A stretch of DNA of 64,000 bases from Escherichia coli. Its GTDB lineage: Bacteria; Pseudomonadota; Gammaproteobacteria; Enterobacterales; Enterobacteriaceae. The DNA is taken from assembly GCF_046105845.1 (NCBI RefSeq), contig NZ_CP151004.1; one strand, given 5' to 3'. Under the pieces are notes generated by a model. The model worked only from the letters and a program-made list of their open reading frames with translations. It did no database searches and was not told where the DNA came from. The position numbers were made by a program, and so were the translations under genes. Position 1 is the stretch's first letter. Each line of letters begins with the position of its first letter. Positions 16,165-19,100 of this stretch are shown here, piece after piece.

Positions 16165-19100
16165 ATGCAGGTCAGCAGAAGGCAGTTCTTTAAGATCTGC
16201 GCTGGCGGTATGGCAGGCACCACGGCAGCGGCACTGGGTTTTGCCCCCAGCGTAGCGCTCGCGGAAACCCGGCAGTATAAACTGCTGCGCACCCGCGAAA
16301 CCCGTAATACCTGCACCTATTGTTCCGTAGGCTGTGGGCTGTTGATGTACAGCCTCGGTGACGGAGCAAAAAACGCCAAAGCATCTATCTTCCATATCGA
16401 AGGCGATCCGGATCACCCGGTCAACCGCGGTGCACTTTGTCCGAAAGGCGCTGGCCTGGTGGATTTCATCCACTCCGAAAGCCGTCTGAAGTTTCCGGAA
16501 TACCGTGCGCCAGGTTCTGATAAATGGCAGCAAATCAGTTGGGAAGAGGCGTTTGATCGCATCGCCAAACTGATGAAAGAAGACCGTGATGCTAACTACA
16601 TTGCGCAAAACGCCGAAGGCGTGACTGTTAACCGCTGGCTCTCCACCGGGATGCTGTGTGCTTCCGCGTCGAGTAACGAAACCGGCTATTTAACGCAAAA
16701 ATTCTCCCGCGCGCTGGGGATGCTCGCGGTCGACAACCAGGCGCGTGTCTGACACGGACCAACGGTAGCAAGTCTTGCTCCAACATTTGGTCGCGGTGCG
16801 ATGACCAACCACTGGGTCGACATCAAGAACGCCAACCTCGTCGTGGTGATGGGCGGTAACGCCGCTGAAGCTCACCCGGTCGGGTTCCGCTGGGCGATGG
16901 AAGCCAAAATTCACAACGGCGCGAAGCTGATTGTGATCGATCCTCGCTTTACGCGTACGGCGGCGGTGGCTGACTACTATGCCCCTATTCGTTCCGGTAC
17001 TGACATTGCTTTCCTGTCAGGCGTATTGCTGTACCTGCTGAACAATGAAAAATTCAACCGCGAATATACCGAAGCCTATACCAACGCCAGCCTTATCGTG
17101 CGTGAGGATTACGGCTTTGAAGATGGCCTGTTCACCGGCTACGACGCGGAAAAACGCAAGTACGATAAATCCTCCTGGACTTACGAACTGGACGAAAACG
17201 GCTTCGCCAAACGCGATACCACGCTGCAACATCCGCGCTGCGTGTGGAACTTGCTGAAACAGCACGTTTCCCGCTACACGCCAGATGTGGTTGAAAACAT
17301 CTGTGGTACGCCAAAAGACGCGTTCCTGAAAGTCTGCGAATACATCGCCGAAACCAGTGCTCACGATAAAACTGCCTCGTTCCTGTATGCCCTCGGCTGG
17401 ACGCAACACTCCGTTGGTGCGCAGAACATTCGTACGATGGCGATGATCCAGCTGCTGCTCGGCAATATGGGGATGGCAGGCGGCGGCGTTAACGCCCTGC
17501 GCGGTCACTCCAATATTCAGGGGCTGACGGACCTGGGGCTGCTGTCGCAGAGCCTGCCGGGTTACATGACGCTACCGAGCGAGAAGCAGACCGATCTGCA
17601 AACCTACCTTACCGCCAACACGCCAAAACCGCTGCTGGAAGGCCAGGTAAACTACTGGGGCAACTACCCGAAATTCTTCGTCTCTATGATGAAGGCCTTC
17701 TTTGGTGATAAAGCGACGGCGGAAAATAGCTGGGGCTTTGATTGGTTGCCGAAGTGGGATAAAGGCTACGACGTCCTGCAATACTTCGAGATGATGAAAG
17801 AAGGCAAGGTCAATGGCTATATCTGCCAGGGCTTTAACCCTGTTGCCTCATTCCCGAACAAAAACAAAGTGATCGGTTGTCTGTCGAAACTGAAGTTCCT
17901 CGTCACCATCGACCCGCTGAACACTGAAACCTCTAACTTCTGGCAGAACCACGGTGAGCTGAACGAAGTTGACTCGTCGAAGATCCAGACCGAAGTGTTC
18001 CGTCTGCCATCGACCTGCTTCGCGGAAGAGAACGGTTCTATCGTTAACTCCGGTCGCTGGTTGCAGTGGCACTGGAAAGGTGCGGACGCCCCGGGGATTG
18101 CGCTGACTGATGGCGAGATCCTCTCCGGTATCTTCCTGCGCTTGCGCAAGATGTATGCCGAACAGGGTGGCGCGAACCCGGACCAGGTGCTGAACATGAC
18201 CTGGAACTACGCTATCCCGCATGAGCCGAAGTCGGAAGAAGTGGCGATGGAGAGCAACGGTAAGGCGCTGGCCGATATTACCGATCCGGCAACCGGTGCG
18301 GTTATTGTCAAGAAAGGCCAACAACTTAGCTCGTTCGCTCAACTGCGCGATGACGGTACAACCTCCTGTGGCTGCTGGATTTTCGCCGGTAGCTGGACGC
18401 CGGAAGGCAACCAGATGGCGCGTCGTGATAACGCCGATCCGTCTGGCCTCGGTAACACGCTGGGCTGGGCATGGGCATGGCCGCTTAACCGCCGCATTCT
18501 GTATAACCGCGCCTCCGCAGATCCGCAGGGTAACCCGTGGGATCCGAAGCGTCAGTTGCTGAAATGGGACGGCACTAAGTGGACCGGCTGGGATATTCCG
18601 GACTACAGCGCAGCGCCTCCGGGCAGTGGCGTTGGGCCGTTTATCATGCAGCAGGAAGGCATGGGGCGTCTGTTTGCCCTCGATAAGATGGCGGAAGGTC
18701 CGTTCCCGGAACACTACGAGCCGTTTGAAACGCCGCTGGGGACTAACCCGCTGCATCCAAACGTTATCTCGAACCCGGCTGCGCGAATCTTTAAAGACGA
18801 CGCCGAAGCATTGGGTAAAGCCGATAAGTTCCCGTATGTCGGAACCACCTATCGTCTGACCGAGCACTTCCACTACTGGACCAAACACGCGCTGTTGAAC
18901 GCGATTTTGCAACCAGAGCAGTTTGTGGAAATCGGGGAGTCGCTGGCGAATAAACTTGGCATTGCCCAGGGCGATACCGTGAAAGTCTCCTCCAACCGTG
19001 GCTATATCAAAGCCAAAGCGGTGGTGACCAAACGTATTCGCACGCTGAAAGCGAACGGCAAAGATATCGATACCATCGGTATTCCGATTCACTGGGGCTA

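Follow-up and report, generated by a model that had tools for sequence, protein, structure and literature searches.

Three genes of Escherichia coli K-12, fdoG (b3894), fdnG (b1474) and fdhF, carry an in-frame TGA within a shared ARV-U-HGP context, this being codon 196 in both fdoG and fdnG, but codon 140 in fdhF. Expression of fdnG is nitrate-inducible and anaerobic, and that of fdo is largely constitutive; Sec196 is a ligand of the molybdenum centre, and full-length selenium-containing FdoG has already been published for E. coli. The SECIS that has been dissected experimentally is that of fdhF, a hairpin located right 3' of the UGA, in which the contact points of SelB comprise an upper stem-loop spaced 11 nt from the UGA, a bulged U17 and the loop residues G23 and U24 (PMC8659212). 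We have analyzed the corresponding site in a 64-kb window of E. coli (the window being the whole stretch of DNA under study) and consider it almost certain that the TGA at 16750-16752 is selenocysteine codon 196 of fdoG, read via a downstream SECIS and not as a stop. The locus comprises the following features:

15138-15971, minus strand: fdhD, accessory sulfurtransferase, divergent (TIGR00129, 340 bits, cutoff 140.9; RefSeq fdhD)
16165-19215, plus strand: fdoG, catalytic (alpha) subunit of formate dehydrogenase-O, 1016 codons in one frame, codon 196 being an in-frame UGA
16165-16263, plus strand: putative Tat signal peptide, residues 1-33 (MQVSRRQFFK...VALA, followed by E), with SRRQFFK read from the translation and the cleavage site inferred
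16750-16752, plus strand: UGA codon 196, selenocysteine codon, in frame and aligned to X196 of 1KQF
19228-20130, plus strand: fdoH, iron-sulfur (beta) subunit (TIGR01582, 478.7 bits, cutoff 334.7; RefSeq fdoH)
20127-20762, plus strand: fdoI, cytochrome b556 (gamma) subunit (NF007924, 453.3 bits, cutoff 341)
20759-21688, plus strand: fdhE, formate dehydrogenase accessory protein (NF002925, 604 bits, cutoff 426)

Judged by sequence, the gene is fdoG and not fdnG, because 1) its product is 99.9% identical to K-12 FdoG (b3894), with K689 here vs. S689 in K-12 as the sole difference; 2) the gene order, with fdhD divergent from fdoG-fdoH-fdoI-fdhE, is that of K-12 4,080,299-4,086,849, as judged by NCBIfam models on the five neighbours; and 3) the gamma subunit is of the FdoI type, its product failing the FdnI model NF007558 (243.6 bits, below the cutoff of 339). 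Compared with b3894, it represents a strain-level allele only, differing in residue 689 and in synonymous changes, with the same 3051-nt length, the same operon and neighbours, and an identical UGA and following 48 nt; the two genes differ at 47 nt, none of which lies within gene nt 555 to 804. The window is collinear with the K-12 fdo region at 98.7%, and the best complete E. coli genomes reach 99.2% identity across the surrounding 7 kb. Scored separately, the two halves of fdoG gave 271 and 1278 bits with TIGR01553 (cutoff 814).

The product is 77.0% identical to K-12 FdnG and aligns over its full length with chain A of the FdnG crystal structure (PDB 1KQF). Both genes encode a Tat signal, Fe-S ligands and Sec196-His197, and they are identical over 48 nt counted from the UGA, each with a SECIS of the Rfam SECIS_3 type; in contrast, fdnG resides in the locus yddG-fdnGHI-yddM, without adjacent fdhD or fdhE, and is accompanied by an FdnI-type gamma subunit. 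The SRRQFFK motif occupies residues 4-10 of FdoG and is also kept in FdnG of 1KQF, with cleavage presumably after residue 33, as assumed from established knowledge of FdnG and FdoG. Residues C50, C53, C57 and C92, together with U196-H197, are present in the translation within stretches identical to 1KQF; based on established knowledge of FdnG, we take the four cysteines to be [4Fe-4S] ligands and Sec196-His197 to have the roles assigned there. FdhF (715 aa) is more remote, being 26% identical and lacking the N-terminal 43 residues that bear the Tat signal in FdoG.

The preliminary description had interpreted two adjacent ORFs as fdoG split at a TGA, with both pieces in the same frame. The ORF list gives a 195-aa ORF (16165-16752) and an 804-aa ORF (16801-19215), both on the plus strand, and their starts each leave a remainder of 1 on division by 3, which places them in a common frame, with the TGA at 16750-16752 as the sole stop that separates them. 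Translated in one frame, 16165-19215 yields 1016 residues with a stop at residue 196, and the junction reads DNQARV-stop-HGPTVASLAPTFGRGAMTNHW, exactly the V-U-HGPTVASLAPTFGRGAMTNHW sequence that had been proposed. No frameshifts or extra stops were found on either side of the TGA in the single-frame translation of fdoG. Alignment to FdnG and FdoG, which had been suggested as a check, returned the 99.9% match to FdoG and placed the TGA on the selenocysteine X196 of 1KQF; the next best matches after 1KQF were formate dehydrogenases named as selenocysteine-containing. A minus-strand ORF (16690-16914, 74 aa) also overlaps the UGA site and is regarded as a mechanical ORF within a conserved gene.

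A SECIS had been expected directly downstream of the UGA, and we found it there, inside the coding frame of fdoG, with its determinants at their canonical places:

16747-16805, plus strand: match to Rfam SECIS_3 (RF01989), 84.3 bits vs. a gathering threshold of 63, covering model positions 1-59 of 59
16753-16795, plus strand: SECIS hairpin, lower and upper stem, from MFE and centroid structures and pair counts in homologues
16764-16781, plus strand: upper stem-loop GGUAGCAAGUCUUGCUCC, predicted SelB-binding module, from sequence positions vs. the determinants in PMC8659212

The SECIS_3 match had an E-value of 1e-19 in a local search and 1.4e-18 in a search of the whole window on both strands, well outside the reach of chance, and it was the sole SECIS match in the 64-kb window, both strands, in a scan at the gathering threshold; its extent coincides with a 71-nt run (16747-16817) shared without mismatch with fdnG. 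The fdhF-like subtype, Rfam SECIS_2, was rejected at 28.1 bits vs. a gathering threshold of 70. The hairpin begins at 16753 or 16755, right after the UGA, depending on the register of the lower stem: the Rfam consensus register begins at 16753 and contains two non-canonical pairs here (A8-C48 and A12-G44), while the shifted, best-fitting register restores pairing, with 16755-16762 pairing to 16787-16795 and G16793 bulged. The upper stem-loop starts 11 nt past the UGA and, counting from the U of UGA, is opened by G15; U17 (16766) is unpaired or bulged, and the apical loop contains G23 (16772) and U24 (16773). The element thus resembles the fdhF SECIS in its location immediately 3' of the UGA, the 11-nt spacing, the bulged U17, the loop G23/U24 and the ARV-U-HGP context; unlike fdhF, which has the apical sequence UGCA-GGUC-UGCA, fdoG has AGCA-AGUCU-UGCU, one nucleotide longer.

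Around the start of fdoG, a candidate FdoG-1 5' UTR RNA thermometer (Rfam RF02778) was rejected at 32 bits vs. a gathering threshold of 50, with only its 3' part (Shine-Dalgarno, start codon and first codons) aligning well and its 5' half gapped and with non-canonical pairs; the MFE fold of 16105-16200 did not reproduce the RF02778 helices (z = -1.06). A promoter and terminator consensus scan of 15900-16900 detected nothing, including no terminator-like site after the TGA.

fdoG and fdnG share 75% nt identity, with the 71-nt run as the longest identical stretch and the next longest being 37 nt; within this run, 20 of 20 degenerate codons are identical (p ~2e-5, given a gene-wide synonymous identity of 0.59). 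This identity could in principle stem from recent gene conversion rather than selection on the RNA, as short tracts can be swapped between paralogues of one genome and the run has sharp boundaries; we regard this as very unlikely, and it would bear on this line of evidence only. A pattern scan of GTDB genomes yielded 118 FdnG/FdoG-type loci, with 66 distinct 62-mers including that of the window itself. The 62-mer of the window recurs unchanged in 25 loci of other Enterobacterales genera, with several genomes carrying it in both paralogues (Enterobacter, Citrobacter, Yersinia, Photorhabdus, Providencia, Klebsiella, Superficieibacter and Escherichia albertii are among the carriers). In these 25 loci, flanking synonymous identity to the window has diverged to only 56-58%, and it is the flanking values alone that are informative, the 100% synonymous identity inside the 62-mer being a product of how the loci were selected. 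Conversion within a genome would not hold different genera identical, and outside Enterobacterales the element varies through compensatory substitutions.

Selection acts on the RNA itself, as demonstrated by covariation and by frozen synonymous sites. Among the 66 distinct homologues, pairing in the upper helix reaches 99.4%, and compensatory (double) changes occur at two pairs: 21-33 (GC in 51, AU in 9 and GU in 6) and 24-30 (AU in 46, CG in 18 and GC in 2). The whole structure is 92% paired, compared to 26-58% when the partners are slid and 26-50% in the controls with a slide of 1-3 columns, and the observed covariation score was reached by none of 500 shuffles. The lower stem is less regular, with 86% of cells paired and two registers in use, columns 12/45 being A-U, U-A or G-U in the enterobacterial register and C-G or G-C in the Rfam register. 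G23 and U24 do not vary across the 66 homologues, nor does U17, but the U17 column was preset by the search pattern.

These patterns bear on the possibility that the UGA is read by near-cognate suppression (Trp/Cys) or another hairpin-independent mechanism, with the apparent SECIS a by-product of a conserved peptide. The peptide HGPTVASLAPTFGRGAMTNHW is indeed highly conserved, so that nucleotide conservation is partly protein-driven, and the stability of the hairpin is unremarkable: folding of the RNA, proposed earlier as a check, did recover the hairpin (MFE -14.6 kcal/mol), but its stability was not significant against dinucleotide shuffles (z = -0.76) or against synonymous recodings (z = -0.36 with uniform and +1.09 with codon-usage-weighted recoding). 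Since these z-scores are not significant, folding alone is a weak test, and we discarded MFE stability as an argument for the hairpin, only its specific geometry being unusual. Nevertheless, such hairpin-independent read-through is barely credible in view of the following: 1) U24, a free third-codon base, reads T in every one of 114 loci, and the pairing base at the bottom of the upper stem, likewise at a free third-codon position, is G in 113 of 114; 2) paired third-codon positions covary exactly (A/U in 91, C/G in 21 and G/C in 2); 3) when the same peptide is recoded synonymously, the upper helix appears in the MFE structure in just 0.5-2% of cases; and 4) the run identical to fdnG holds all those degenerate codons unchanged. 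What supports the SECIS is hence its match to the covariance model, together with covariation and frozen synonymous sites, rather than folding energy.

Because the element is identical to those of K-12 fdnG and fdoG, we infer that it binds SelB and directs selenium-dependent read-through. By analogy with fdhF and fdnG, we surmise that the mRNA just 3' of the UGA would fold during translation into the bacterial SECIS hairpin (~16753-16795), with the upper stem-loop at 16764-16781 presenting the bulged U17 and the loop G23/U24; SelB, carrying Sec-tRNA(Sec) and GTP, would bind this stem-loop and, so tethered, compete with release factor 2 for the UGA in the A site of the ribosome, bringing selenocysteine to that codon. 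The outcome would be a full 1016-residue selenoprotein that is probably exported through the Tat pathway, with Sec196 likely serving as a ligand of the molybdenum cofactor in FdoG. Within the 64-kb window we found none of selA, selB, selC and selD, nor any tRNA gene, including tRNA(Sec); in E. coli the sel genes are located elsewhere, so their absence from the window is uninformative, and we assume that this genome is competent for Sec insertion.

We also see an outside chance that the SECIS carries a second, undescribed constraint beyond the needs of SelB, because the freezing of every synonymous site, between the two paralogues as well as from genus to genus within Enterobacterales, as seen in the 62-mer, seems to exceed the known needs of SelB, namely a short upper helix plus U17, G23 and U24. 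Such a constraint might lie in the lower stem or 3' flank, contacting the ribosome or the SelB quaternary complex; it might consist of a tuned hairpin stability, weaker than that of typical recodings; or it might reflect concerted evolution that keeps both paralogues equal competitors for limiting SelB.

To the reading of the TGA as a true stop, with fdoG as a nonsense pseudogene or as two genes of 195 aa and 804 aa, we give next to no credence: it has in its favor the two ORFs of a mechanical list and the exact 195-aa and 804-aa fragments deposited as separate proteins in public databases, each on no fewer than 1000 contigs, and has against it that 1) the same TGA is found in K-12 fdoG and fdnG, at the homologous codon of fdhF and at the homologous site of the 118 loci, which come from distant proteobacteria and other phyla; 2) its counterpart in a solved structure is selenocysteine, and a high-scoring SECIS follows it; 3) among 5433 E. 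coli records, 5321 show at least 99% identity over the 81 nt spanning it, with matches in 5425 of 5426 genomes; 4) the 804-aa piece would start partway through a conserved domain, devoid of Tat signal and Fe-S ligands; and 5) neither side displays signs of decay.

We confirm that the UGA and SECIS in fdoG, as recognized here as Sec codon and insertion signal, are real and had been rightly interpreted, and that they constitute textbook biology already known at this site, as the preliminary description had correctly stated in calling it established. Its further claim that automated callers mis-annotate the gene is upheld by the separately deposited fragments, with one qualification: RefSeq joins the halves as a single 3051-nt CDS, yet labels it fdnG, formate dehydrogenase-N subunit alpha. 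Some homologous fragments of ~195 aa, clustered with the 195-aa piece, even bear the name sulfate ABC transporter substrate-binding protein. The main relevance of the site is accordingly one of annotation quality, as callers that treat TGA as a stop split an essential-cofactor enzyme into "proteins" of 195 aa and 804 aa. fdoG also serves as a clear example of how an RNA signal can reside inside a coding sequence, one that is visible in frozen and covarying synonymous sites and not in folding energy, which calls for caution with scans based on MFE z-scores.

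A mechanical ORF list breaks fdoG, the gene for the alpha subunit of formate dehydrogenase-O, into two pieces:

16165..16752, + strand, ORF 1, 195 aa with an ATG start
16801..19215, + strand, ORF 2, 804 aa

Because 16165 and 16801 both leave a remainder of 1 on division by 3, the two ORFs lie in one frame, and the sole stop between them is the TGA at 16750-16752. One-frame translation of 16165-19215 yields 1016 codons plus the terminal stop, with the internal stop at residue 196 and a junction reading DNQARV*HGPTVASLAPTFGRGAMTNHW. The preliminary description had proposed such a same-frame split at a TGA and quoted the V-U context of this junction, and both agree with the coordinates and the translation. 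Taken together, the two halves span the whole of the NCBIfam equivalog TIGR01553 (271 bits for profile positions 1-194 and 1278 bits for 196-1009; cutoff 814). A single residue separates the read-through protein from K-12 FdoG (S689 in K-12 vs. K689 in the window); the read-through protein is 77% identical to K-12 FdnG, the formate dehydrogenase-N paralogue, and 26% identical to K-12 FdhF. Among solved structures, the top match was FdnG (1KQF), aligned over the full length, with its unknown residue X196, the selenocysteine, opposite the window TGA; the alignment to FdnG/FdoG proposed as a check thus came out in favor of the selenocysteine reading. The structure matches ranking next are entries titled 'selenocysteine-containing' formate dehydrogenases. 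In addition, the Tat motif SRRQFFK and cysteines C50, C53, C57 and C92 are legible in the translation, within blocks identical to 1KQF. These data place an in-frame UGA of a formate dehydrogenase alpha subunit gene at the position of the selenocysteine.

The genes flanking fdoG were assigned with NCBIfam profiles:

15138-15971, fdhD, divergent from fdoG
19228-20130, beta subunit gene
20127-20762, gamma subunit gene
20759-21688, fdhE

The gamma subunit scored above the cutoff of the FdoI-type b556 model (453 bits vs. 341) and below that of the FdnI model (243.6 bits vs. 339), and the genes are arranged as in the curated fdo locus of K-12 (b3891-b3895). Ahead of fdoG, the Rfam RF02778 'FdoG-1 5' UTR thermometer' family gave a sub-threshold match at 15996-16194 (+) (32 bits vs. 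gathering 50, E = 2.9e-5) that aligns well just over the Shine-Dalgarno, start codon and first codons, and its helices are absent from the MFE fold of 16105-16200 (z = -1.06); the similarity probably stems from conservation around the translation start, not from a thermometer. Since about 470 bp of K-12 yiiG (4,086,945-4,087,416) are gone at ~15042-15049 and the annotation of strain PCN033, the closest complete genome over the fdo region, lists yiiG as frameshifted and partial, in this lineage the yiiG adjoining fdhD is probably a pseudogene remnant.

The window comes from the E. coli chromosome and runs collinear with K-12 4,038,747-4,101,222 in the opposite orientation, with 94-98.7% identity. 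Of 5426 complete E. coli genomes, 5424 have the 7 kb around fdo, with a highest identity of 99.2%, and the rhaM-rhaD and frv segments (6505-15049) are 93.8-94.5% identical to K-12 vs. 97-98.7% for neighboring segments; it seems that the strain comes from a lineage sparse among complete genomes or that these segments are recombinant. The following features lie elsewhere in the window, the RNAs being called at Rfam gathering thresholds:

24361-25344, + strand, 327-aa esterase of the hormone-sensitive-lipase / acetyl-esterase type
36551-37630, - strand, YihU-type sulfolactaldehyde reductase (579 bits)
44573-44680, - strand, ES222 sRNA
51458-51711, - strand, CsrC
52739-52857, - strand, Spot 42
62112-62227, - strand, 5S rRNA
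62322-64000, - strand, 23S rRNA (rrnA), 3' 1.7 kb, cut by the window end

ARAGORN found no tRNA genes in the 64-kb window. The reductase belongs to an 8.6-kb stretch (30694-39335) without megablast similarity to K-12. This stretch occupies the place where K-12 has its 11.9-kb sulfoquinovose cluster, running from yihO to csqR, and also encodes an aldolase-like protein, a Zn-dependent dehydrogenase, two MFS transporters and a DeoR-family regulator, so that the stretch may represent another form of the sulfoquinovose pathway locus. The esterase lies in about 4.5 kb between yiiE and fabY (22729-27263) missing from K-12, as are about 1.8 kb between rhaM and frvA (7732-9508); a 617-aa ORF (25513-27366, -) and a 464-aa ORF (7772-9166, -) had no NCBIfam match at the 1e-10 cut-off. 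PCN033 has a 'carbohydrate porin' CDS (1395 nt), of about the size of the 464-aa ORF, directly upstream of yiiG, where K-12 has frvR, while in the window the frv genes lie between the 464-aa ORF and yiiG. A further ~125 nt (49143-49267), 84% similar to the K-12 yiiF-fdhE intergenic sequence (4,079,989-4,080,123), are probably a dispersed intergenic repeat element.

An all-Rfam scan placed SECIS_3 (RF01989), the mRNA hairpin expected directly downstream of the UGA, at 16747-16805 (+) with 84.3 bits vs. a gathering threshold of 63 (full model, E = 1e-19), the only SECIS match in the whole window at gathering thresholds; the fdhF-like SECIS_2 model stayed below threshold (28.1 bits vs. 70). From the UGA onward, the RNA folds at minimum energy into a hairpin whose lower stem leads through an internal loop to an upper stem-loop (GG-U-AGCAA-GUC-UUGCU-CC). 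With the U of UGA taken as position 1, the upper stem begins at G15, 11 nt past the UGA, U17 (16766) is bulged, and the apical loop holds G23 (16772) and U24 (16773). This agrees with the positions at which SelB contacts the E. coli SECIS and with its spacing rule (PMC8659212). The K-12 fdhF SECIS has the same spacing, U17 and G23/U24, but its stem sequence differs.

Three independent comparisons reveal selection on the SECIS nucleotides themselves. Between fdoG and K-12 fdnG (75% nt identity, with 59% of degenerate same-amino-acid codons identical), the longest identical run is 71 nt (16747-16817; runner-up 37 nt), beginning 3 nt upstream of the UGA and spanning the SECIS match, with 20 of 20 degenerate codons identical (p about 2e-5). 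A GTDB genome scan with the pattern GTNTGACAYGGNCCNACNGTNGC (V-U-H-G-P-T-V-A with free third positions) returned at least 120 stretches; among the matches listed, 118 of 119 usable stretches are FdnG/FdoG contexts (...DNQARV-U-HGPTVA[S/G]LA...) from Gamma-, Beta- and Alphaproteobacteria, Desulfuromonadales, Terriglobia and one actinomycete MAG, and one Streptomyces match was a chance match. Together with the window's own, these gave a gap-free alignment of 66 distinct 62-mers, in which columns set by the search pattern are invariant by construction and those cited here for covariation and third positions were free. The upper helix is 99.4% paired, with pair 21-33 occurring as GC 51, AU 9 and GU 6 and pair 24-30 as AU 46, CG 18 and GC 2; over the whole structure, pairing reaches 92%, vs. 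26-58% with partners slid by 1-3 columns, and none of 500 shuffles reached the observed covariation score. The lower stem is looser (86% paired) and has two registers: 1) the Rfam consensus register, which suits GGCCC...GGCCG variants; 2) a one-shifted register, which suits the enterobacterial GGACC...GGUCG variant, columns 12/45 being A-U, U-A or G-U. Among the matches listed, all 114 loci have T as the third base of AGT/GGT, which forms U24, and 113 of 114 have G as the third base of the Thr codon, which lies at the foot of the upper stem, while third positions several codons away vary over three or four bases.

Gene conversion might have been the source of the fdoG/fdnG conservation. However, among the matches listed the window 62-mer is identical in 25 loci of other genera (including Enterobacter, Citrobacter, Klebsiella, Yersinia, Photorhabdus, Providencia and Superficieibacter, as well as Escherichia albertii), with several genomes contributing both paralogues; the remaining 8 enterobacterial-type loci differ at few positions. 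The flanks of 24 identical loci share just 56-58% of synonymous codons with the window, the 100% synonymous identity within the element being a consequence of selecting those loci. Recent gene conversion is thus disfavored as the sole cause, because the 62-mer is identical across genera with diverged flanks. There is a small possibility that the SECIS is under more constraint than minimal SelB requirements account for. Read-through of the UGA independent of the hairpin is likewise contradicted by several results, among them the pairing conserved across these loci. That the TGA is a true stop, with fdoG a pseudogene or two genes, is also contradicted by several results.

Downstream of the UGA lies a SECIS that matches at the family level, has the SelB determinants in place and is under selection at the RNA level. 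By analogy with fdhF and fdnG, the upper stem-loop would be bound by SelB carrying GTP and Sec-tRNA(Sec), SelB would compete with release factor 2 in bringing selenocysteine to the UGA, and full-length FdoG would have Sec196 as a molybdenum cofactor ligand and be exported via the Tat system. The window gene is the fdoG of K-12, carrying the known Sec196 codon, and its SECIS matches the fdnG one exactly, as expected of what had been called established biology; it shows no departure from the described system and is already known.

The exact 195-aa and 804-aa pieces, encoded by 16165-16749 and 16801-19212 (+), are stored in public collections as separate proteins, each piece on at least 1000 contigs and in a cluster of 3382 or 6687 members, respectively, which bears out the assertion that automated callers mis-annotate the site. 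In the first cluster, some homologous 195-aa pieces from Cronobacter and Hafnia are labelled 'sulfate ABC transporter substrate-binding protein'. The RefSeq pipeline merges the halves into one 3051-nt CDS, named 'fdnG, formate dehydrogenase-N subunit alpha' in each E. coli record among those listed; the curated K-12 record names it fdoG. As for the folding check, the hairpin with its SelB determinants was recovered, but its stability was ordinary (51-nt fold, z = -0.76 against dinucleotide shuffles). Against 3000 sequences that recode the same peptide synonymously, z for the MFE was -0.36 (uniform codon choice) and +1.09 (local codon usage), and the upper helix appeared in the MFE structure of just 0.5% or 2% of recodings under the two codon schemes. 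The signal of the SECIS is not thermodynamic stability; folding energy alone would have missed the fdoG SECIS, a useful by-product of this analysis alongside the annotation errors.
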